Assembly: GCA_951406725.2 (NCBI GenBank)
Contig: OX597816.1
Span: 153,078,001 to 153,142,000, forward strand
DNA length: 64,000 bases
Direction of reading: 5' to 3'
Source of the DNA: Octopus vulgaris
Taxonomy: Eukaryota
Made by a program: the position numbers and the translations under genes. The notes below the pieces were generated by a model that ran no database searches, was not told the origin of the DNA, and worked only from the letters and a program-made list of their open reading frames with translations. Shown one piece after another: positions 17,930-51,250 of the stretch. Numbering within the stretch: the stretch's first letter is position 1; each line of letters begins with the position of its first letter.

Positions 17930-18390
17930 ACAATCCTTTCTCCTATAGTCACAAGGCCTGAAATTTGGAGGAGGGGGCTAGTCGATTACATGAAGCTCAG
18001 TGCATAACTGGTACTTATTTCATTGACCCCGAAAAGATGAAATGCAAAGTCAACCTCGGTGGAAATTGAACTCAGAACATAAGGATGGATGAAATGCTGC
18101 TAAGTATTTTGTCTGGCATGCTAATGATTTGACCAGCTTTGTCGCCTTACATGTATAATAATAATAATAACAACGGTTTCAAATTTTGGCACAAGGCCAG
18201 CAAATTAGGGGGAGGGGCTAAGTTGTTCACATCAACCCCATTGTTCAACTAGTAATTAATTTATCAGCCTCAAAAGGATGAAATGCAAGTTGACCATGGC
18301 AGAATTTGAACCCAGAACATAAGGATGGATGAAATGCTGCTAAACATTTTGCCTGGTGTGTTAATGATTCTGCCAGCTCAGCGCCTTACA
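17930..18390 (-). mobile_element. Two adjacent, CpG-decayed, complete copies of the tRNA SINE superfamily targeted by the Tx1 LINE
   Basis: Each has a tail, the gaccccgaaaagatgaaa core, a B box and a head; many CG to TG/CA changes relative to 49005-49238. Confidence 0.8.
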
Positions 18391-18409
18391 TATATAAAAG
18401 TAATAACAA

Positions 18410-33920: not shown

Positions 33921-34104
33921 CTATTTCTTTACTACCCCTAAGGGGCTAAACACAGAGAGGACTAACAAGGACAGACAAACGGATTAAGTCGATTATATCG
34001 ATCCCAGTGCGTAACTGGTACTTAGTTTATCGACCCCGAAAGGATGAAAGGCAAAGTCGACCTCGGCGGAATTTGAACTCAGAACGTAACGGCAGACGAA
34101 ATAC
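33921..34104 (-). mobile_element. 3' part of a tRNA-derived SINE (B box, conserved core, Tx1-type tail) split by the LINE; duplicated at 40371-40554
   Basis: Minus strand GAGTTCAAATTCC (B box), GCCTTTCATCCTTTCGGGGTCGATAAA core and tail ending GTAGTAAAGAAATAG; collinear with the intact copy at 49005-49238. Confidence 0.9.
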
Positions 34105-34351
34105 GAATTTCTTTATTGCCCACCGGGGGCCAAACATAGATATGGACAGTACAACTGATGGGATCAGTGAATCGATATGATTTTACATAAATGTGACATC
34201 AAAAATAAAATACAATACATAAAAATCGAATGGAATACACAGTACAAAAACAATACAAATGAAGCGATGATCAAGTTACGCTCCGATCCCACAAGCCCCG
34301 ATCTACCGCTGATACCTTTTTATTTTTCCTTTTTTTTTTTTCCTCGTCTAT

Positions 34352-37300
34352 TCACACGGTTCCTTGCACGCACAACACTCGTGCAACATACTTCCATCTC
34401 TTTTGGAACGTACACTCTGACAGACACCTCTTCTCCAGCCACAGTTTCCTTTTCAAATGAAAAGAAAAAAAGGATCGTAAATTGTCACCAGAGATAAAGT
34501 TACCTGTCTTAATTCCTTTTATCCTAGTATTCCATACAGCCTCTTTTGCTATTGCTACAACCGTGAGAAAACAATTCTTACCTTCGTTCGTTAGAACTCC
34601 CGGTGGGTCAATTTTTATAATTGACTCAGTCGACAGCCGTACTCTTCCTTCGCCGGACAACAGATGTTCAGCATAAGCCCACATTTCAGTTATCTCCGGA
34701 CACTGAACAATAGCGTGAGGGACGGTTTCCCTGTCCCCCCGCATCTTGGACAGGTCGGCGACTGACGTTTACCATGTCTTGCGAGCTTATCCCAAACGGG
34801 CAAGGCACCTCTGTAGCATTGCCAGGTTAAGGACTTTTGGAAGTTGTCCAACGTTCTCAACCCGAATGTACGATGAAACAAGCTGTCCAGTTGAATAAAT
34901 CCGAGACCTAGAGTCGACCCCAGGCCATCGTCGCATTCAGACTCTACCAACCCACTATATAAAATCCGTGTGGAACCCCCACCGCTGGCGTTGCCCGAGC
35001 GCCGGAACAGCAAGAGGGCCTTACGGCACTCTTTATGCCACTCACTCGACCTCGGTCTACGAGAACACCAGGCTTCCTGTTCGCAAAAACTCTTGAGCTC
35101 AGGGAACATTTGTCTGGCCAGCGGAGACCACACCCGTTCACTATCCAGGAGAATCCAGAGGTGCCTCAACCTCAACGCATGTCTGCGCATCATTAACCAA
35201 GGCATCCCTAAACCTCCATTTAAAGGCTTTTGACAGCAGACAGAGCGTTTCACAAGTGGCGACCTGCCCTTCCACAAAAAGCGAAAGAGCTGTCTCTCCA
35301 ACCTGATCAACCACGAATCCGGACAGGGCACGACAGTCAGGCGGTAGGTAATGACTGATGCGATAAACACATTGGCCACCTCCGCCCTCCCTTTCAGGGA
35401 TAGCCACCGCCAAGACCAGGTCTTGACTACTGCAGCCACCCTGCTCAATACCTCCGTCCAGTTCTTCTCTATCTGGAGGCCTGGTCCAAACCAGACTCCC
35501 AGCAACTTAACCGGTCCCTCCGTCCAGCGCCTAACAACACTGTCTGAAGGCATCGACTTGCCAACCCAGGTGCCGAGCTGCAAGCCGACCGACTTTTCCC
35601 GGTTAATCTTTGCTCCTGCTACCTCCTCGTAAGCCTCAATAGTCTTACCTACTTCACGTAGGCGTGCCACTGTGGTTACACTGATAGTGATATCATCCGC
35701 GAAAGCCGTAACAAACTCCTCTAGTCCTGGTTCTCTCGGGATGCCACTCAACCTTTGCAGTAATGGCTCGAGAGCCATCACATACAAAAGTGGTGAAAGC
35801 GGACATCCTTGACGAACCGAGCGTCTGATGCAGAACGGCTTCGAAAGGAAACCGTTCACCCGAACTATCGAGTCAATGTTGTGGTACAAAGCGATAAACC
35901 ACCTGAGGAAGCCAAGACCCAGGCCAAACCGCGCAAGTACAGTCGCTAGGTATCGATGGTCAACCCTATCAAAAGCTTTAGACTGGTCCAAATGCACCAA
36001 TGCCCCACCTTTGCCAGATTTATTACCAACCTCTCTATGGTATAGCGAATAAGATGGAGGGTATCCTGAATGGTTCTGCCTGGGATGGCACATGTCTGTG
36101 CCTCCCCGACTATACCATTCGCGACACGCGCCAACCTTTTTGCTAGAACCTTGGCCAAAATCTTCACTTCTGCGTTTAACAGAGTGATGGGCCTGAAATT
36201 CTCTAGAACGTCCCCCTTGTCCGGGTCCTTTCTGACCAACGTCACTACTCCCCGGCGCACAGATCTGGGGATAAACCCATTCTGTTTCCAGTTCGCGTAC
36301 ACGTCAGTCAGTAGTTGCCCGAACAAGTCTGGCATACATTTATATAGCTCGTACGGAAGACCATCAAGTCCCGGTGACTTACCCGCTTTACAATCGGCCA
36401 AAGCCTCCATCACCTCCTCAAGTGTGATTGGCCCTTCGCAAGACTCCGCATCCGACCCCGAGAGGCACGGCAGCCCGGTAAGAAAATCCTCGAGGGCTCT
36501 CCCACCACCAGGACCGCCGTCACCCCCGAACAGCTGGGTGAAGTACTCCCGAAAGACCTCACACATTTTCTCGGGTTCGTTTATCAAGACACCATTTTGA
36601 TTCGTCAAAGACCGAATAGAGGAACTATTTCCTTGCCGAGCTTCCACCACTCGGGCCCATCCAGCGGCCTTAATTCCTTCACTTCCCATTGCACGTAACT
36701 TAGCTCTGGTAATACTTCCCATGTGGTGGGCTTCAAGATGCTGGTTTAACTCCAGTCTTTTCACCCTCGCTTGGTCTGTATTACCAGTCCTCCAGGCTTC
36801 TTCTAGTTCCTTAACTAGACCATCTCCTATTTTACGTCCCTTCTTAGCTAAACTTATGCTAAATCTAATAGACTCATATTTGATGGCTCTTTTTAGGGCG
36901 TACCACCATTTGTTATTAATGATGGTACCTGTTAATGCCCTTTGTATTAACATCTTGATCCGCTTTCTGTACTCCTCAATCGCCAAAAGGGACGTATTGA
37001 GTTTCCAGTAGCCAGATCCCTGTCTATGCAACTTATCTACCGTCAGTTTACAGGTAACCATCTTGTGGTCACTGTAGCTGACTAGAAAAAACTGTGGACA
37101 CTCAACTATGGACTTATCTTTTTCTCTAATTAAAATCCTATCTAGATATGTTCTGGTAGACCCGTCACTATTTGACCACGTCCACTGTGGAGTGTTCGGG
37201 TGTTCCAACCTATATGGATCTGCTAGCTGAAATTGACTTAGCAGATCCCGAAAGCCTGGGTTACATTTTCTGTTCATGTTCGAGTTTGAGCCAACACAAT

Positions 37301-37750
37301 CTGTGTGTGCTGCACATATTGTATTAGAGTCTCCTAACACTACTAGTGAATGCGACGTGGCTAGGAACCTTCCTAGGCCACGAAAATATTCAGTTTGCGG
37401 GCCAATAATGTTTGGTGCGTAAATAGCGACCAGCCTGATTGTCTTGCCACAACTGAATGTCAAGTCGAGAACGACCAGCCTGCCTTCTGGGTCAGAAAAA
37501 ACCAACTTTTTCTCGGCTACCCGGTTTCTGTTTAGTAGGACCAACACCCCACCCCACCTCCCGCCCGACTCGGAGAAACGTATTTCTCGTAGCCGTTCAG
37601 GAGGGGTAGCAGATCTCTTGGCCCCTTCACCCGGGTTTCCGTTGCAACAATTACATCCAAATTTCTCGACCTGATGTCATTTAGAAAGCGTCCTTGCTTC
37701 CAGCTTGACAACAGGCCATGAACATTTAAACAACCAATGTGAATAGACAT
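34352..37750 (-). pseudogene. Tx1 LINE copy 1 ORF2 (APE endonuclease, reverse transcriptase, CCHC), frameshifted
   Basis: GCLNVHGL, ATETR, AIYAPN, YLDRIL, SDH, GYWKLNTSLL, KSPGLDGLPYELY, DQSKAFDRVDH, RQGCPLSPLLY, FADDI, CPRC..ETVPHAIVQC, split across four ORFs. Confidence 0.93.
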
Positions 37751-37753
37751 GAC

Positions 37754-39290
37754 TTACCTGTTTAATTAGGATTGTCCGGTGGAGGGGGACCCTCCACCTT
37801 TTTTTAATCCAGGGTCGGAGGTGGACGGTCTTGGGAAATAGATTTGTCAAAATCCCGTCTCACCACCGACACAGAATTATCAGGCGGAGGGAGAATCTCC
37901 ACCTTTTCCTTTTCTCGCGGGATCGGGGCTGGTAATCCATGAAATATCGACTTGTTAAAATCTAATCTCAATGAAGATACAGTCTTTCTGTATTTATTTT
38001 GTAGAATTCTATAAGTCTTATTTGAGACTTCATATTTGTCATAATTGATAAATTCCTCTGAAAGGTTATCTATTTTTTTACAGTCTTTATGAGTTGAATG
38101 TCTCTCATGAGCTCAGTATCTTTAGTGTATACGGCTATTATGCCTTTTTCTTCTTTTTCTCTTCTGGCAGTCTTTTTTGGTCGTTGTTCTGTAGTAGTCG
38201 CCGCTCTCGGCTGGGTTGCTGGTTGTATTTTTCTTTTGTTTGTTGTTTTTTTCTCATCTGTTTCTTCTTTATCTTCTTCCTCTTTGTCTTTTTTCTCCTC
38301 TTCCTCCTCTTCTTCATTTTCCTTGCATTTCCTTCGAATGTGGCCTAATTGACCACATAAAAAAACATCGAGGTTTTCGGCCCTCAACAAACACCACGAG
38401 GGTCTCCTCCCCTACCTCAATTGTCTCGGGAATAGCTTGAATTATTTTAGGGTCCGCTTGAATGAGAAGATTAATTGTTTGACCATCCCAGCGTGGGTTT
38501 TCCGTAGCGGTAACCTGGAGGAGAGTAATTTTTTCTACCTCTTTGATTAGGACTGCCGCCAACAACCACATATGTTCGACCTCTGGCGGGACCCTTGTAA
38601 TTTTTATTCTCGACGTCCTCATCCCCATATAATAGGGGATGAGCTCCACGTCGTTCGTTTTCAACGTTTCAATTGAGTTCTTGTGTGCTATTTCTTTATT
38701 GGTGAACCTTACTTCCACCGTTCCGAATTTTTTCCTCTTCTCAGATATACTACGTCGCCCCATATTGGCTTTAAGCACTTTTCTATTTTCTCTTCTGACA
38801 TTCTTTCAATTTTTCTTTTTTGTAGACAATATGTTTTGAAAATTATTGTTTCTTGCTTTTCTTCTTGTAATAACTTTTGCGGAGGTTCAATTTTCACACC
38901 GTTGTCAGTTATTTTCATCATTTTGGCTGTATTTCATAAAGTCGCTTTTATTCGTCGACAGTATCGGGTTCCACCCCCAGCAGCCAACGCAAAACTTTTT
39001 TTTCTATTTTTTGGTTCTATCTGGATGCTAGGCACATCAATTATTCTCTTCGACACAATGCCTTTGTTCTCTGGCAAAGTCGGAAGCTCTTCTGGTGAAA
39101 GTTCTGACGAGCCCTCAGACACATCTCCAAAAATATCAAATATATTATCCTCTCTGCTATTCCTTCTTGTAGCGGGGGAAACCCCTATTTCCTTGTCTGT
39201 AGTTGGCTCCTCGCCGGACATGTATTTCCTCCTCTCAACAGGAGAAACAAGTATTTCTGCTCCAACGGTAGGCTCCATGCTAGACGACAT
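37754..39290 (-). pseudogene. Tx1 LINE copy 1 ORF1 (gag-like, CCHC zinc knuckle, acidic/basic tract), frameshifted
   Basis: VFVEGRKPRCF-LCGQLGHIRRKC across a homopolymer frameshift; lies directly upstream of ORF2. Ends are approximate. Confidence 0.85.
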
Positions 39291-39455
39291 TCTTCCCCCC
39301 AAAGGGGGAATGAACAACGCGTGCTACCACAAGCACTAAGTGTTTTCAAATTGAAAACTCCAACAGTTAAGTTATTCAACAGTTTAACAAGAAACAACAG
39401 TTGTTAACAATATTAACACCACGAAACAGCAATTCTTACTTCACGAACACATGTG

Positions 39456-39520
39456 CGGCAGACGAAATACGGCTACGCATTTCGTCCGGCGTGCTAACGT
39501 TTCTGCCAGCTCGCCGCCTT
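39456..39520 (-). mobile_element. 5' tRNA-like head of the same SINE (also at 33008-33072 and 45905-45969)
   Basis: Minus strand AAGGCGGCGAGCTGGCAGAAACGTTAGCACGCCGG with an A-box-like motif; matches 49174-49238. Confidence 0.9.
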
Positions 39521-40800
39521 GAGCGGACCTATGATTAATGGCATTCTTTTTTGTGTCCATTCCAATAATTATTTTCAGGTAATATGTATCGTGGCTACAT
39601 TGCCCAGTATGTACGAATTTAAGACAGCGATTAAGAGTGCGATTTCAAAAAGATTAGGGGATTGTTATTTCTAGCAGATCGAACAACCATGCAGAAGTTT
39701 ACTCGTTAGTTCCAAACGCCTTCTTGTCAAGATACATGATTAGGTATCGTGACAAGCGATACTTCTTACTGGATAGCAAGCCTAACGTGTTTAACATCTA
39801 GGAGGATTTGAACTCATTAAAGCTCTCGTTAGTTTTACTCTGTCACTGCAACAACCAAAATATTATTTAAAAAGGGTAAATTGGCCATTGTCTACTGTTT
39901 ACTTTGATTGAATAAAGCCTTGCCATTTGTTGAAGCACAACTACGTCTGCCTTATTTTTATTACAAAAAAAGTATGGTGTTAGGCTTCTCCTTGGGGTTA
40001 TTTACAGAAGGAACTTCTACATGCTGATATAAGGTACTTAAAACAACAACAAACTTTTTGCATTGGTATGATGTGTGACAGTAGGCTTCTCTGTGGATTT
40101 CAAAACCACAGTTTCATGGAGTAGTTTCACCTGTTCTGTTTTAACGAATTGTTCCGACTAAACAAGTTTCGTTTTGCGAGCTGTAAAGGCTATGCAATTA
40201 CTGAATATCTAAAACGTCACATGTATTTATAAGCAAAAGCAGGTGCAAGTTTCAAAAGTTACCAATGCGTCAACTGACGCATGTGGTCTTTATAGGTAGA
40301 ATGTGGTTTATTATTTTTTTTACAGTTGATGTTTTTTACAGTTCAACTACTATAAACGCACGTATCATACCTATTTCTTTACTACCCCTAAGGGGCTAAA
40401 CACAGAGAGGACTAACAAGGACAGACAAACGGATTAAGTCGATTATATCGATCCCAGTGCGTAACTGGTACTTAGTTTATCGACCCCGAAAGGATGAAAG
40501 GCAAAGTCGACCTCGGCGGAATTTGAACTCAGAACGTAACGGCAGACGAAATACGAATTTCTTTATTGCCCACCGGGGGCCAAACATAGATATGGACAGT
40601 ACAACTGATGGGATCAGTGAATCGATATGATTTTACATAAATGTGACATCAAAAATAAAATACAATACATAAAAATCGAATGGAATACACAGTACAAAAA
40701 CAATACAAATGAAGCGATGATCAAGTTACGCTCCGATCCCACAAGCCCCGATCTACCGCTGATACCTTTTTATTTTTCCTTTTTTTTTTTCCTCGTCTAT

Positions 40801-43800
40801 TCACACGGTTCCTTGCACGCACAACACTCGTGCAACATACTTCCATCTCTTTTGGAACGTACACTCTGACAGACACCTCTTCTCCAGCCACAGTTTCCTT
40901 TTCAAATGAAAAGAAAAAAAGGATCGTAAATTGTCACCAGAGATAAAGTTACCTGTCTTAATTCCTTTTATCCTAGTATTCCATACAGCCTCTTTTGCTA
41001 TTGCTACAACCGTGAGAAAACAATTCTTACCTTCGTTCGTTAGAACTCCCGGTGGGTCAATTTTTATAATTGACTCAGTCGACAGCCGTACTCTTCCTTC
41101 GCCGGACAACAGATGTTCAGCATAAGCCCACATTTCAGTTATCTCCGGACACTGAACAATAGCGTGAGGGACGGTTTCCCTGTCCCCCCGCATCTTGGAC
41201 AGGTCGGCGACTGACGTTTACCATGTCTTGCGAGCTTATCCCAAACGGGCAAGGCACCTCTGTAGCATTGCCAGGTTAAGGACTTTTGGAAGTTGTCCAA
41301 CGTTCTCAACCCGAATGTACGATGAAACAAGCTGTCCAGTTGAATAAATCCGAGACCTAGAGTCGACCCCAGGCCATCGTCGCATTCAGACTCTACCAAC
41401 CCACTATATAAAATCCGTGTGGAACCCCCACCGCTGGCGTTGCCCGAGCGCCGGAACAGCAAGAGGGCCTTACGGCACTCTTTATGCCACTCACTCGACC
41501 TCGGTCTACGAGAACACCAGGCTTCCTGTTCGCAAAAACTCTTGAGCTCAGGGAACATTTGTCTGGCCAGCGGAGACCACACCCGTTCACTATCCAGGAG
41601 AATCCAGAGGTGCCTCAACCTCAACGCATGTCTGCGCATCATTAACCAAGGCATCCCTAAACCTCCATTTAAAGGCTTTTGACAGCAGACAGAGCGTTTC
41701 ACAAGTGGCGACCTGCCCTTCCACAAAAAGCGAAAGAGCTGTCTCTCCAACCTGATCAACCACGAATCCGGACAGGGCACGACAGTCAGGCGGTAGGTAA
41801 TGACTGATGCGATAAACACATTGGCCACTTCCGCCCTCCCTTTCAGGGATAGCCACCGCCAAGACCAGGTCTTGACTACTGCAGCCACCCTGCTCAATAC
41901 CTCCGTCCAGTTCTTCTCTATCTGGAGGCCTGGTCCAAACCAGACTCCCAGCAACTTAACCGGTCCCTCCGTCCAGCGCCTAACAACACTGTCTGAAGGC
42001 ATCGACTTGCCAACCCAGGTGCCGAGCTGCAAGCCGACCGACTTTTCCCGGTTAATCTTTGCTCCTGCTACCTCCTCGTAAGCCTCAATAGTCTTACCTA
42101 CTTCACGTAGGCGTGCCACTGTGGTTACACTGATAGTGATATCATCCGCGAAAGCCGTAACAAACTCCTCTAGTCCTGGTTCTCTCGGGATGCCACTCAA
42201 CCTTTGCAGTAATGGCTCGAGAGCCATCACATACAAAAGTGGTGAAAGCGGACATCCTTGACGAACCGAGCGTCTGATGCAGAACGGCTTCGAAAGGAAA
42301 CCGTTCACCCGAACTATCGAGTCAATGTTGTGGTACAAAGCGATAAACCACCTGAGGAAGCCAAGGCCCAGGCCAAACCGCGCAAGTACAGTCGCTAGGT
42401 ATCGATGGTCAACCCTATCAAAAGCTTTAGACTGGTCCAAATGCACCAATGCCCCACCTTTGCCAGATTTATTACCAAACCTCTCTATGGTATAGCGAAT
42501 AAGATGGAGGGTATCCTGAATGGTTCTGCCTGGGATGGCACATGTCTGTGCCTCCCCGACTATACCATTCGCGACACGCGCCAACCTTTTTGCTAGAACC
42601 TTGGCCAAAATCTTCACTTCTGCGTTTAACAGAGTGATGGGCCTGAAATTCTCTAGAACGTCCCCCTTGTCCGGGTCCTTTCTGACCAACGTCACTACTC
42701 CCCGGCGCACAGATCTGGGGATAAACCCATTCTGTTTCCAGTTCGCGTACACGTCAGTCAGTAGTTGCCCGAACAAGTCTGGCATACATTTATACAGCTC
42801 GTACGGAAGACCATCAAGTCCCGGTGACTTACCCGCTTTACAATCGGCCAAAGCCTCCATCACCTCCTCAAGTGTGATTGGCCCTTCGCAAGACTCCGCA
42901 TCCGACCCCGAGAGGCACGGCAGCCCGGTAAGAAAATCCTCGAGGGCTCTCCCACCACCAGGACCGCCGTCACCCCCGAACAGCTGGGCGAAGTACTCCC
43001 GAAAGACCTCACACATTTTCTCGGGTTCGTTTATCAAGACACCATTTTGATTCGTCAAAGACCGAATAGAGGAACTATTTCCTTGCCGAGCTTCCACCAC
43101 TCGGGCCCATCCAGCGGCTTTGATTCCTTCACTTCCCATTGCACGTAACTTAGCTCTGGTAATACTTCCCATGTGGTGGGCTTCAAGATGCTGGTTTAAC
43201 TCCAGTCTTTTCACCCTCGCTTGGTCTGTATTACCAGTCCTCCAGGCTTCTTCTAGTTCCTTAACTAGACCATCTCCTATTTTACGTCCCTTCTTAGCTA
43301 AACTTATGCTAAACCTAATAGACTCATATTTGATGGCTCTTTTTAGGGCGTACCACTATTTGTTATTAATGATGGTACCTGTTAATGCCCTCTGTATTAA
43401 CATCTTGATCCGCTTTCTGTACTCCTCAATCGCCAAAAGGGACGTATTGAGTTTCAAGTAGCCAGATCCCTGTCTATGCAACTTATCTACCGTCAGTTTA
43501 CAGGTAACCATCTTGTGGTCACTGTAGCTGACTAGAAAAAACTGTGGACACTCAACTATGGACTTATCTTTTTCTCTAATTAAAATCCTATCTAGATATG
43601 TTCTGGTAGACCCGTCACTATTTGACCACGTCCACTGTGGAGTGTTCGGGTGCTCCAACCTATATGGATCTGCTAGCTGAAATTGACTTAGCAGATCCCG
43701 AAAGCCTGTGTTACATTTTCTGTTCATGTTCGAGTTTGAGCCAACACAATCTGTGTGTGCTGCACATATTGTATTAGAGTCTCCTAACACTACTAGTGAA

Positions 43801-44200
43801 TGCGACGTGGCTAGGAACTTTCCTAGGCCACGAAAATATTCAGTTTGCGGGCCAATAATGTTTGGTGCATAAATAGCGACCAGCCTGATTGTCTTGCCAC
43901 AACTGAATGTCAAGTCGAGAACGACCAGCCTGCCTTCTGGGTCAGAAAAAACCAACTTTTTCTCGGCTACCCGGTTTCTTTTTAGTAGGACCAACACCCC
44001 ACCCCACCTCCCGCCCGACTCGGAGAAACGTATTTCTCGTAGCCGTTCAGGAGGGGGAGCAGATCTCTTGGCCCCTTCACCCGGGTTTCCGTTGCAACAA
44101 TTACATCCAAATTTCTCGACCTGATGTCATTCAGAAAGCGTCCTTGCTTCCAGCTTGACAACAGGCCATGAACATTTAAACAACCAATGTGAATAGCCAT
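40801..44200 (-). pseudogene. Tx1 LINE copy 2 ORF2 with shared frameshifts and an in-frame TAG at 43356
   Basis: ORFs 43982-44203, 43356-43997, 41139-43214 (uninterrupted RT core) and 40801-41193. Confidence 0.93.
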
Positions 44201-44203
44201 CAC

Positions 44204-45740
44204 TTACCTGTTTAATTAGGATTGTCCGGTGGAGGGGGACCCTCCACCTTTTTTTATCCAGGGTCGGAGGTGGACGGTCTTGGGAAATAGATTTGTCAAA
44301 ATCCCGTCTCACCACCGACACAGAATTATCAGGTGGAGGGGGAATCTCCACCTTTTCCTTTTCTCGCGGGATCGGAGCTGGTAATCCATGAAATATCGAC
44401 TTGTTAAAATCTAATCTCAATGAAGATACAGTCTTTCTGTACTTATTTTGTAGAATTCTATAAGTCTTATTTGAGACTTCATATATGTCGTAATTGATAA
44501 ATTCCTCTGAAAGGTTATCAATTTTTTTTACAGTCTTTATGAGTTGAATGTCTCTCATGAGCTCAGTATCTTTAGTGTATACGGCTATTATGCCTTTTTC
44601 TTCTTTTTCTCTTCTGGCAGTCTTTTTTGGTCGTTGTTCTGTAGTAGTCGCCGCTCTCGGCTGGGTTGCTGGTTGTATTTTTCTTTTGTTTGTTGTTTTT
44701 TTCTCATCTGTTTCTTCTTTATCTTCTTCCTCTTTGTCTTTTTTCTCCTCTTCCTCCTCTTCTTCATTTTCCTTGCAGTTCCTTCGAATGTGGCCTAATT
44801 GACCACATAAAAAAACATCGAGGTTTTCGGCCCTCAACAAACACCACGAGGTTCTCCTCCCCTACCTCAATTGTCTCAGGAATTGTTTGAATTATTTTAG
44901 GGTCCGCTTGAATGAGAAGATTAATTGTTTGACCATCCCAGCGTGGGTTTTCCGTAGCGGTAGCCTGGAGGAGAGTAATTTTTTCTACCTCTTTGATTAG
45001 GACTGCCGCCAACAACCACATAGGTTCGACCTCTGGCGGGACCCTTGTAATTTTTATTCGCGACGTCCTCATCCCCATATAATAGGGTATTAACTCCACG
45101 TCGTTCGTTTTCAACGTTTCAACTGAGTTCTTGTGTGCTATTTCTTTATTGGTGAACCTTACTTCCACCGTTCCGAATTTTTTTCCTCTTCTCAGAAATA
45201 CTACGTCGCCCAATATTGGCTTTAAGCACTTTTCTATTTTCTCTTCTGACATTCTTTCAATTTTTCTATTTTGTAGACAATATGTTTTGAAAATTATTGT
45301 TTTTTGCTTTTCTTCCTGTAATAACTTTTGCGGAGGTTCAATTTTCACACTGTTGTCAGTTATTTCCATCATTTTGCTGTATTTCATAATTTCGCTTTTA
45401 TTCGTCGACAGTATCTGGGTTCCACCCCCAGCAGCCAACGCAAAACTTTTTTTTCCATTTTTTGGTTCTATCTGGATGCTAGGCACATCAATTATTCTCT
45501 TCGACACAATGCCTTTGTTCTCTGGCAAAGTCGGAAACTCTTCTGGTGAAAGTTCTGACGAGCTCTCAGACACATCTCCAAAAATATCAAATATATTATC
45601 CTCTCTGCTATTCCTTCTTGTAGCGGGGAAACCCCTATTTCCTTGTCTGTAGTTGGCTCCTCGCCGGACATGTATTTCCTCCTCTCAACAGGAGAAACAA
45701 GTATTTCTGCTCCAACGGTAGGCTCCATGCTAGACGACAT
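44204..45740 (-). pseudogene. Tx1 LINE copy 2 ORF1, frameshifted
   Basis: ORFs 45492-45767, 44764-45573 and 44127-44840, with the CCHC knuckle. Ends are approximate. Confidence 0.85.
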
Positions 45741-46999
45741 TCTTCCCCCCAAAGGGGGAATGAACAACGCGTGCTACCACAAGCACTAAGTGTTTTCAAT
45801 TGAAAACTCCAACAGTTAAGTTATTCAACAGTTTAACAAGAAACAACAGTTGTTAACAATATTAACACCACGAAACAGCAATTCTTACTTCACGAACACA
45901 TGTGCGGCAGACGAAATACGGCTACGCATTTCGTCCGGCGTGCTAACGTTTCTGCCAGCTCGCCGCCTTGAGCGGACCTATGATTAATGGCATTCTAGCT
46001 GTGTCCATTCCAATAATTATTTTCAGGTAATATGTATCGTGGCTACATTGCCCAGTATGTACGAATTTAAGACAGCGATTAAGAGTGCGATTTCAAAAAG
46101 ATTAGGGGATTGTTATTTCTAGCAGATCGAACAACCATGCAGAAGTTTACTCGTTAGTTCCAAACGCCTTCTTGTCAAGATACATGATTAGGTATCGTGA
46201 CAAGCGATACTTCTTACTGGATAGCAAGCCTAACGTGTTTAACATCTAGGAGGATTTGAACTCATTAAAGCTCTCGTTAGTTTTACTCTGTCACTGCTAC
46301 TTAGGTACATTGATCTGTACCTCCTCGCTTCACTTATTTATAGCTAAATGGGCTGAGTCATTGAGAATTAAATGTCTTTGCCGATTTTATATTGCAGTAC
46401 TTGTAACGTGGAAATATACTAACACTGACAGGCTGACGACCAAGATGCCTATAAGTGAATTAGTATTGCTTTGTTTAGTTAAGCTCTGGACGAGGGAGTG
46501 AGAGAGAAAGAAAGAAAGAAAGGAAGGAAGGAAGGAAGGAAGGAAGGAAGGAAGGAAGGAAGGAAGGAAGAAAGAAAGAAAGACAAAGAGAGAAAGAGGG
46601 AGAGAACGGAATGGAGACAGGGATTGGGAGCAAACAAAGGTATAAAATAGCATCAAATGATTAAATAAAGATCTGATGTTCAAAAATCAAATTCCCATTC
46701 ATCTGTCGAATGCTATATGAAAATCCAATAAACAGATAAGCACAGAATCAAAGATCAAATCACCGAGGGAATGTGATATTTCTAATTAATACAGCTATAA
46801 GGAAATATCGAATTATCGAATTTGGTATCGAACCAACAAACCTTGAGATACTTGTGATAAAGAACCGATTGAAGTCAGATAAAAATTCCCCAGCAACCTT
46901 TATGGATTGGTGATCAAATAGGATGGATGAGAGACCTTCTAAATTCTAAACATCATGATATATCAATGTTTATATTTCTGCCATGAATATCAGTGGACA

Positions 47000-48577: not shown

Positions 48578-48665
48578 AAACACCCCCCATCCTTGGGCAA
48601 GTGTCTTCTACTATAGCCCGGGCCGACCAAAGCCTTGTGAGTGGATTTGGCAGGCTTGTTTTAAT

Positions 48666-49238
48666 ATTCTTTTCTACTCTAGGCATAAGGCCCGAAATTT
48701 TTGAGGAGGGGGCCAGTCGATTAGATCGACCTGAATACGCTACTAATACTTAATTTATCGACCCCGAAAGGATGAAAGGCAAAGTCAACCTCGGCGGAAT
48801 TTGAACTCAGAACGTAACGGCAGACGAAATACCTATTTCTTTACTACCCACAAGGGGATAAACACAGAGAGGACAAACAAGGACAGACAAACAGATTAAG
48901 TCGATTAGATCGACCCCAGTGCGTAACTGATACTTATTCAATCGACCCCGAAAGGATGAAAGGCAAAGTCGACCTCGGTGGAATTTGAACTCAGAACGTA
49001 ATACCTATTTCTTTACTACCCACAAGGGGCTAAACACAGAGAGGACAAACAAGGACAGACAAACAGATTAAGTCGATTAGATCGACCCCAGTGCGTAACT
49101 GATACTTATTCAATCGACCCCGAAAGGATGAAAGGCAAAGTCGACCTCGGTGGAATTTGAACTCAGAACGTAGCGGCAAACAAAATACCGCTTAGCATTT
49201 CGCCCGGCGTGCTAACGTCTCTGCCATCTCACCGCCTT
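48666..49238 (-). mobile_element. Nested head-to-tail SINE array: host SINE body (48666-48832), two Tx1-tailed units (48833-49004, 49005-49188) and one tRNA head
   Basis: Three SINE bodies but only one head; junction cggcagacgaaatac|ctatttctttac at 48832. Confidence 0.9.
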
Positions 49239-50029
49239 GAGCTAGTTTTAATATTGCAATGCTAAATTAATTTATGTAAAGTTTTCTATGATATCTAAGT
49301 CCTATATCGCATAAAAACTGAAACGCTTCTAAGTCAGCTATTTTATCTATATCCATTCTTCGGTGAGTAAACCTCAGGAAGAGAATTAACCAGTATGTTA
49401 TAAAAGCATCTGAGCAATAACCAATTTATTCCCTATTATCATCTTCTGGGGAATCATGATAAATTCAAAGCGTTTCAGTTTTCTAGAAATATATAATCGC
49501 AACTTCAGCTTCCAACAATGGAACATGCAGAAATCTGAACATATTACAACTTCTCTGGCAGAAAAGAAAACCGAAGAAAAACTGAGCTGAAAAAGTGTTT
49601 CACATTTTTAACTAAACAATTTTGACCGGTGCATGGATAACACTTTCAAAAATGATTTCGTGAATGTTCTCTTCATTAAATGAACGTTAATTATGTATTA
49701 GGACTTTAACACTTTCTTGGATGTGACAGCATAGTAATTCTCATTGCAATTCCTCCCAGACATGTCATGCGAATTGTGCTAACACTACTTTCAATCTTTC
49801 GAAAATTCTTTCTAGTTTTTCAGACAACAATATATTCACAAACCGATTGTTGTTTCAAGTATTCAGGAAACAATGAAATGATAAGATAAGCATGAACTCA
49901 TGGTTTAAAATTTTTGGCACATGGCCAGTAATTTTAGAGGAAGAGGTCTTGTTGAATACATCAATCCCAGTATTTGATTGGTACTTTATTGTATTTCAGC
50001 TTAAGTCATCAATGTTAGTAAGACAGAAT

Positions 50030-51250
50030 TCTCCCGGGAAAATGCCATCAATGATCTATATTGCGAGAGAAAAACCAGCAGTCTCTGGATTTAAATTTTT
50101 GAAGATGGTCTGATTTTAATGTTTGGTGGTAATGTAAGTGGAGATTAAAAAACTCATACAGCTTGTTTATAGATCAAACAAGCCAAAGGCCTTAACAATT
50201 ATCCTGAAATATAATTTCCGAAGCACATGCAAATTCAGTAAGAAAAGGCTTGCATTGAAGCTTCATTTTAACTTCATAAATTTGCTCATAACAAGCAAAA
50301 GAATTTTTCAAAGTTGTGGCAACCTCTCTATTTCGTTCATCATTTGGATTATGAGTTGCAAAAATTTGTTTGTTTGCATATCATATCCTTGAGGTAAAAC
50401 AATACCATGAGAGCCAAAAGATCTCTTCCATGTGAACATGTTTTGGATCATGCATACAGACCTCTAGCATTTTGAAAAATCCAATATCCAAATGTTAAAA
50501 TCATTTTTCCTTTATCACCAACACAGTCTCCCTTCTTCAGCCTATAGACCAAAGAATTATTTCAACTTTTGGCGGATATCATTCGTGAGAAATATTTGGA
50601 ACTCATTAAAACCACAGATAAGTACTCTTAAAGAACTATGGAAAAGCTTTAATGTTTTAAATGCAATTAATATTATGAAGCAGGCTTTTAATAGAATTTC
50701 AGAGAAGGCTATGAACAGTGTTTGGCGAAAATTTATCCCGATTTAATTGCTAATTTTGAAAGATTTAAAAATCTTGAGGATATAAAGTAACGAAATCAAA
50801 AAATTATTCAGCTTGCTGACCACGTAGATGTTGAAAGTTTTACAAGTGACGTAGCAGATCTATTTAAAATGTGTACTGATAGTAATTAGAAATGGAAGAG
50901 TTGATTAGAATGTTAATAGGAGAAAATGATAATGAAAGGCAAAAGGAAAACGATGAAAAAAGTCATCCTGCAAGCAAACAAATTTTTGCAACTCATAATC
51001 CAAATAATGAACGAAATAGAGAGGTTGCCACAACTTTGAAAAATTCTTTTGCTTGTTATGAGCAAATTTATGAAGATAAAATGAAGAAAAAGAAGGGGAA
51101 AAACAGCGCTGTAACTAGAAAGATCTTGAAAATTTTCTGATGAAAATAAATCACCACATCTGAAAATTTTAATCACAAAAATTGACAATGATTGTTAATT
51201 AAAGTTTTAGCGAAAAAAGATAGTTTGTGTTATATTTTGAAGGATTATTT
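50030..51250 (+). mobile_element. Decayed Tigger/pogo transposase
   Basis: KMPS..YIARE...SGFK, MFGGNVSGD, LVYRSNKPKAL, LKELWKSFNVLNAI..AMNSVWRK. Confidence 0.8.

Follow-up and report, generated by a model that had tools for sequence, protein, structure and literature searches.

Insertion of an octopus L1/Tx1-type LINE, and of a SINE that is likely its passenger, at one base of the SINE

In Octopus vulgaris, an L1/Tx1-type LINE inserts at one base of an abundant SINE, and a SINE with a LINE-like tail, likely the passenger of this LINE, inserts likewise; the 5′ ends would be joined by homology, and recombination would then lengthen the arrays so created. We put the probability of this reading at about 0.7. 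The analysis started from a window, the whole stretch of 64,000 nucleotides considered here (assembly GCA_951406725.2, contig OX597816.1, positions 153,078,001 to 153,142,000), and was extended to the rest of the assembly. Bare coordinates refer to the window.

Results

The LINE and its target base

The window contains two LINE copies, with the following surroundings.

39456..39518, minus strand: SINE head and 15-nt target piece upstream of LINE copy 1, bearing at head positions 43 and 48 the marks that almost every LINE 5′ end shares
34105..39455, minus strand: L1/Tx1-type LINE copy 1, with APE endonuclease and reverse transcriptase (RT) in broken reading frames, located at the same SINE base as the array described below
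33921..34104, minus strand: downstream of LINE copy 1, the body of the host SINE with its LINE-like tail
40555..45904, minus strand: LINE copy 2, within a 6.45-kb tandem duplication that includes the flanks

Copy 2 was rejected as an independent insertion, because it was duplicated together with its flanks: between 33000 and 46297, a segment of 6.45 kb, made up of a SINE head, the LINE, a SINE unit and a unique flank, is present in ~2.06 tandem copies of 99% identity, which is either a recent duplication or an assembly artefact. In ORF2 of the LINE, an APE endonuclease domain is followed by an RT domain (PF03372, PF00078), and relatives have PF13966. The LINE is closer to L1 ORF2p (E 1e-45) than to R2 (E 1e-20), and the best named relative is from Argonauta hians (61%). 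The open frames upstream of ORF2 are broken and gave no Pfam match. The Tx1 label rests on the preliminary description of the window and on general traits of the clade, and the relatives listed include no named Tx1 reference; we use L1/Tx1-type.

To characterise the insertion sites, 30 of 75 exact matches to the LINE 3′ end were inspected, and 29 loci were kept after leaving out one that was a SINE (L090). The SINE target directly followed the LINE 3′ end in 27 of the 29, a count that includes the tandem pair of the window (2) and one much diverged copy. In the other 2 loci, a similar non-SINE sequence follows. These are older LINE copies (L107 and L109, after locus position 1529) with a target resembling the SINE site, and both run into the same other repeat.

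Seventeen young LINE copies were compared, after setting aside L097 and any copy whose end was unlike that of the youngest group; the LINEs differ by 1% and their host bodies by 9.6%. The insertions are therefore independent, and a LINE travelling along with its SINE flanks is ruled out. We conclude that the LINE inserts sequence-specifically into a multicopy repeat, and that a single base of the SINE, located between its A and B boxes, holds nearly all copies.

The 5′ junction of the LINE

A search for LINE 5′ ends yielded 32, of which 30 were inspected. All 30 had a SINE head and target piece upstream. Head mark G43 was present in 29 and C48 in 30, compared with G43 in 25/68 monomers of the new SINE family and 0/36 of the old one. 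The 15-mers upstream and downstream of the LINE were unlike in 12 of the 15 loci where both ends were available, one upstream 15-mer variant was common to 19 of the 30 ends, and two old-type hosts bear the LINE-type head. The 5′ join of the LINE is thus no plain target site duplication (TSD). The simplest reading is that the LINE RNA includes a head end plus target piece, and that its cDNA pairs with the host copy of this segment and replaces it. This would correspond to homologous 5′ joining of the R2 type, with the upstream target sequence supplied by the RNA of the element, of which we observe the footprint in DNA.

It could be argued that targeting is real, but that donor-like heads reflect either a preference of the endonuclease for G43/C48 heads or later gene conversion between SINE copies. 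Such heads make up 37% of new monomers, and with SINE copies in the hundreds of thousands ectopic conversion is possible. Preference leaves unexplained, however, both the unlike 15-mers of the 12 loci and the single variant shared by 19 ends, as well as the G43 heads on old-type hosts reported below, and we consider this alternative very unlikely.

Junctions in the assembly

The 21-nt junction between tail and target was found 38,496 times as an exact match in the assembly and never in a reversed control, so it is not due to chance. The tail 29-mer occurs 88,066 times, and junction plus tail 28,419 times, again with 0 matches for the reversed controls. For an unselected view, 100 blocks of 10 kb were taken at round-number positions on 30 contigs (1 Mb in all). 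Arrays less than 80 nt from a locus end and duplicates were dropped (69 of 681 rows), and 102 tails were reduced to 92, with 7 tails of another LINE, lying before an ATCT microsatellite, excluded. The target follows 31 of these 92 SINE tails, at offset 0 in 23 of the 31. Such a junction is contained in 25 of 77 loci; the number of units per locus was 1 in 64, 2 in 6, 3 in 6 and 5 in 1. Extrapolation from this 1 Mb suggests about 260,000 tails and some 90,000 junctions in the genome. The claim of the preliminary description that LINE and SINE use the same base is therefore borne out, by 27/29 LINE loci and 31/92 tails.

The other 61 tails lie away from the self site. They belong mostly to full-length monomers, many with flanking direct repeats, and show a loose preference for sites beginning with GTAT, ATAT or GAA. 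Read-through of the RNA was not supported as a source of the GTAT found behind free tails, the motif being present in both TSD copies where a TSD was found. The SINE prefers itself without being confined to itself. An outcome that the preliminary description had named as refuting its proposal, Tx1-tailed SINEs occurring mostly as free-standing full-length copies at random sites, is seen in part. The SINE is far less target-specific than the LINE, and may use other LINEs too. Tail subtype tracks target type, as the self site was used by 21/42 tails of one subtype and 2/21 of another.

Counted by eye, only ~25 of the last 31 nt are the same in the tails of SINE and LINE, and the two have a similar predicted hairpin. 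A 3′ tail shared with a LINE and dispersed copies bearing TSDs are as expected of a tRNA-derived SINE. As to putative internal promoter boxes, the A box fits the consensus in 53/68 new monomers, and the B-box-like motif fits at 8 of 9 positions. The body presumably resembles a CORE-type domain. The LINE-tailed SINE is likely the passenger of the LINE. As to family marks in the head, position 19 is a weak one, and position 36 was set aside because of CpG decay.

Other site preferences were noticed in passing. Old-family SINEs have a second hot spot in their A box, near head position 16, where 6 SINE insertions were seen in the 1 Mb (L246, L296, L276, L065, L305 and L247); the tail ending of most of these inserted copies is a variant one. 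ATCT microsatellites directly follow the end of another element whose tail is related (L237, L266, L278, L292, L301; L114, L126, L134), and which resembles in its target the microsatellite-targeting Tx1 families. At L305 and L237, two SINE copies lie antisense at the same position within another SINE body.

The array at 48666-49238

The array from which the preliminary description was made is on the minus strand. With H for the head, B for the 118-nt body (which opens with the 15-nt target piece and contains the B-box-like motif), T for the 66-nt LINE-like tail and O for the old tail, it reads HBTBTBO: head, unit A, unit B, then body C with the old tail.

49241..49255, minus strand: TSD of the host SINE, 5′ copy, 15 nt, 14 of 15 identical to 48654-48668
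49189..49236, minus strand: SINE head, 48 nt, with an A-box-like motif at 49216-49226
49005..49188, minus strand: unit A, 184 nt: 15-nt target piece, B-box-like motif (49152-49162), body and 66-nt LINE-like tail
48833..49004, minus strand: unit B, 172 nt, which repeats positions 17-184 of unit A and continues with 4 nt from the start of body C
48715..48832, minus strand: body C, from the host SINE, marked as old-family by body positions 93, 96 and 109 and beginning at the LINE target base
48669..48714 (start about 48669), minus strand: old-family tail of the host SINE, different from the LINE-like tail
48654..48668, minus strand: TSD of the host SINE, 3′ copy, pairing with 49241-49255

The whole array is enclosed by the 15-nt direct repeat, with 1 mismatch. 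Three bodies do stand under one head, as had been described, and the tail/target junction of unit B (48833/48832) is the SINE base where the LINE ends (34105/34104). It had been stated that the LINE begins at 34104; in fact its 3′ end adjoins this position, since the element is on the minus strand and runs from 39455 down to 34105. Unit B differs from unit A at 1 position in 168 nt, compared with 11 differences between unit A and the family majority, and it fits a chimera with a switch at position 16. The suspicion of a local duplication voiced in the preliminary description was thus correct, and so was the shortfall at the second junction, although unit B lacks 12 nt rather than about 11. Unit A, in which a mutated T4 run starts at 49185 directly behind the head of the array, is likely the inserted unit. 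We conclude that the array is one insertion into an old-family SINE followed by one recent 172-nt duplication, and that it is unremarkable as a locus.

The head gave no tRNA call with ARAGORN (bacterial setting) and no Rfam match; diverged SINE heads often escape both. Elsewhere in the window, two diverged old-family SINEs stand in tandem at 17934-18406 (78% alike), and 118-nt inverted arms, 97% identical and 590 nt apart, are found at 50261-51086, possibly a small DNA transposon.

Two-headed insertions

If a SINE inserts as a whole into another SINE, the target piece should be followed by a new head. Two such patterns gave 127 + 163 = 290 exact matches. In 42 cases inspected (41 loci), the target recurred behind the new tail in 39. 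Non-majority bases of the upstream piece recurred downstream in only 16 of 29 instances, which counts against the general reading. These two-headed copies are shown to be ordinary TSD-bearing insertions, and hence true self-insertions. In 5 of the 39 the insertion lies behind a tail and not behind a head, so that the downstream tail-body junction can serve as a target too. Two-headed forms are rare: they account for 2 of 108 sampled arrays, and ~98% have one head.

These data bear on the idea that arrays stem wholly from unequal crossing-over or slippage, without any targeted insertion. Long arrays, and the array at 48666-49238 as well, do show clear signs of local duplication. A monomer, however, has no repeat to misalign; dimers unite unrelated units of different families and ages; the 290 two-headed insertions and the LINE share one base; and the TSD-bearing cases contradict it. 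Crossing-over as the whole explanation, which the preliminary description had named as an outcome that would overturn its proposal, therefore accounts for long arrays and for unit B but not for dimers of unrelated units, and is barely credible.

One-headed composites

Exact one-headed junctions numbered 2,935 onto the old-type target and 14,599 onto the new-type target. We pooled 49 composites whose last body is old: 27 came from earlier blocks, and 22 from the 42 arrays of 40 targeted stretches, the other 20 arrays not having the form head, units, old tail. The last body was older than the first in 36 cases against 9 (p=2e-5), and the old last bodies were star-like, with 0 of 1176 pairs within 2%. 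Insertion into other copies of the SINE, including those of an old family with another tail, is supported.

Could one-headed composites be the offspring of master dimers, retrotransposed whole through their last tail? A single TSD encloses whole arrays, the majority unit lacks a T4 run, which makes a read-through RNA plausible, and in arrays ending in a LINE-like tail first and last bodies are equally old. At one locus (L027), a 22-nt repeat flanks a head and a unit together with 28 nt that belong to the following unit. The greater age and the star-like relations of the old last bodies argue against a few master dimers. Moreover, sharing across both units was found in 3 of 630 pairs, versus 1.1 expected, several old tail types serve as hosts, and for the LINE this scheme is excluded by the 1% versus 9.6% divergence. 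We regard it as unlikely in general, although it may hold for part of the arrays ending in a LINE-like tail.

How, then, is the 5′ end of the inserted unit joined? A 15-nt TSD of host type was rejected: the old mark at target position 15 is present in only 3/48 first units, versus 14/22 old monomers, and in 0/21 of a set selected for an old target downstream. In the heads of composites, G43 was found in 14/49, versus 0/22 old monomers. Head age in composites was 0.092, between 0.060 in new monomers and 0.136 in old ones (p=0.013 and 0.027), and in G43 heads the 3′ half is young (0.027) and the 5′ half older (0.084). Almost all composites must therefore have been joined at a point upstream of target position 13, and no fewer than 29% of them (at least 14/49) at a point upstream of head position 43. 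The A box of many composites is probably that of the host; estimates of the host share in the head have wide intervals, which include 0 at all four head markers. Per-locus head age tracked neither body in 36 old-tailed composites (flat correlations). An apparent scarcity of shared variants in the first 15 nt was discarded as a selection artefact, the arrays having been chosen by an exact junction.

As the upstream target copy is of donor type, the 5′ end of one-headed arrays is likely joined by homology, as in R2. The preliminary description had proposed that a headless unit is inserted. Insertion holds, but the donor is more probably a full-length SINE RNA joined by homology, given the donor-type upstream 15 nt.

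Growth of the arrays

The sample used for array growth consisted mostly of junction-selected blocks on one contig. Two-body arrays contain unrelated units in 52 of 60 cases, and are mostly independent insertions. The situation is different in arrays of at least 6 bodies, where the median distance between neighbours is 0.006 and 22/31 neighbour pairs are duplicate-like, versus 158/20,000 random pairs. The largest arrays have up to 11 bodies, with near-identical middle units. In middle units, the 5′ end matches the downstream unit and the 3′ end the upstream unit. Of 20 trimers, 9 are consistent with chimeras of this kind, whose switch points range from 0 to 86. This spread accords better with unequal recombination than with repeated insertion at a fixed nick; the remaining 11 may be second insertions or old duplicates. 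By a rare-variant test, 15/21 three-body arrays contain three lineages, and in the unselected set only 3/27 neighbour pairs are duplicate-like. Of the 4 trimers of the unselected set, 3 fit chimeras. Part of a SINE is thus amplified locally in tandem, as in SINE-derived satellites.

Related structures were seen at other places. On one contig (C10:17996024-17996506), a SINE head plus target piece forms a 64-nt unit that is repeated in tandem, in at least 8 copies, with similar pairs at C6:120813010, C1:194001253 and C11:19231500. At L030, L157, L324 and L342, SINE arrays face each other in inverted pairs, the junction being close to the target base or within the body.

Promoter and target after insertion

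The preliminary description went further, and proposed that every unit is a new targeted insertion renewing both promoter and target, so that arrays grow as a homing chain. An insertion does rebuild the order head, target, B-box-like motif, and an intact target again stands behind the head. The expected gain of a B box was not seen, since the motif is intact in 23/36 first units and equally in 23/36 host bodies (in monomers, 9/36 old and 57/68 new). T4 runs, absent from the family majority unit, have been gained in 48/81 arrays. Clearly, the effect of insertion is to change the tail that adjoins the head.

Such a chain would agree with the three lineages of 15/21 three-body arrays, with the 11 trimers that misfit a local chimera, and with the use of tail-body junctions as targets. 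Against it stand the near-identical chimeras of long arrays and the duplicate nature of unit B, for both of which growth by repeated insertion is not supported, together with the unchanged B box and the T4 runs. Also, 0/30 full-length LINEs lie behind a tail, although 25% of intact sites are tail-body junctions. A homing element, of the homing endonuclease or retrohoming intron type, enters only the empty cognate allele and destroys its target; here the target is rebuilt and 61/92 tails lie elsewhere, so that the system is homing-like only in part and by definition no homing element. A chain in which every unit is a fresh insertion is, in our view, unlikely.

Discussion

The preferred reading, in which LINE and LINE-tailed SINE insert at one SINE base and arrays are lengthened by recombination, can be put as a series of steps. 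The endonuclease of the LINE would nick the target, and reverse transcription would be primed there from the tail shared by LINE and SINE. The cDNA, carrying a target piece and a head, would anneal to the upstream DNA of the host, as the footprints suggest, converting the upstream 15 nt to donor type almost always; in at least 29% of cases, this conversion would extend to the 3′ part of the head. The product would contain the 5′ head of the host, a new body, a LINE tail, the old body and the old tail. Once two bodies are present, misaligned recombination would generate the near-identical chimeric middle units; their pattern is observed, and the recombination is our explanation of it.

The closest known system is that of the crocodilian Tx1-Mar LINEs and SINEU elements, which share a common target in Mariner, with tandem SINEU-3 copies formed by sequential insertion and some Tx1-Mar families bearing an RNA-gene-derived head like that of SINEU (PMC4494074, Kojima 2015). 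In both cases, LINE and passenger SINE have one target inside a repeat. In octopus, however, the target lies within the passenger SINE itself rather than in Mariner, and the usual product of insertion has a single head and a target copy of donor type, unlike the SINEU tandems with a TSD between copies. The same source describes Tx1 of Xenopus in Tx1D, Keno in U2 genes, and Kibi and Koshi in microsatellites. Like these, the octopus LINE is a sequence-specific APE-type element aimed at multicopy repeats; in the sections considered, none of them is described as aimed at its own SINE.

A parallel for the 5′ junction is provided by R2, for which it is proposed that the RNA contains upstream 28S sequence and that the cDNA pairs with the upstream target and closes the 5′ junction (PMC6895275). 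In both systems the upstream target sequence would be an element-derived footprint, the end of the octopus RNA being deduced from that footprint. R2 RNA with 28S sequence at its 5′ end was reportedly described by Eickbush in 2000 and by Fujimoto in 2004. Whereas R2 has a restriction-like endonuclease and inserts into rDNA, the octopus LINE is of APE type, its target is a mobile SINE, and its passenger SINE leaves the same footprint.

Tandem SINEs and SINE-derived satellites have been described as squamate sSats and as Dip multimers of jerboa, for which unequal recombination was proposed (PMC10702118). The octopus arrays are likewise SINE-derived and amplified locally in tandem; they differ in that the repeat unit is set by the target base and tail of a retrotransposon, and in that targeted insertion seeds them.

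Octopus tRNA-derived SINEs were reportedly described by Ohshima and Okada in 1994, and are possibly the same families as those studied here. A 2026 annotation of octopus repeats reports recent activity for 13 L1-Tx1 families and leaves 893 SINE families unclassified; parts 1 and 2 of its 3 parts do not mention targeting (PMC13282606). Another source identifies OR2 as a CORE-SINE (PMC4758252). In the titles and abstract openings searched, a scope that left subscription journals and repeat libraries outside, we found no description of a LINE targeting its own SINE. The octopus system appears to be a target-specific pair of Tx1-like LINE and SINE, with an R2-like 5′ join that would be visible in marked natural events.

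One may go further and picture a self-renewing loop, in which the SINE gives the LINE its landing site and retro-homes into older SINE copies. We hold this to be possible but doubtful. If true, RNA-templated joining would rewrite part of the host promoter and swap in the LINE tail, tens of thousands of dead old-family loci would become new source genes and targets, and SINE families would turn over by in-place conversion besides new insertion.

The LINE would thus owe its safe landing site to its own passenger, on a scale of roughly 90,000 junctions as extrapolated from 1 Mb. Because marked positions distinguish old from new families, the way in which the 5′ end of a retrotransposon insertion was closed can be read from each composite. 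This step has long been open for APE-type LINEs, and is countable here in thousands of natural events. The arrays also exemplify one route from an interspersed repeat to a satellite, by targeted seeding and then recombination, and in such genomes chimeric arrays can inflate the number of SINE families and distort their ages.
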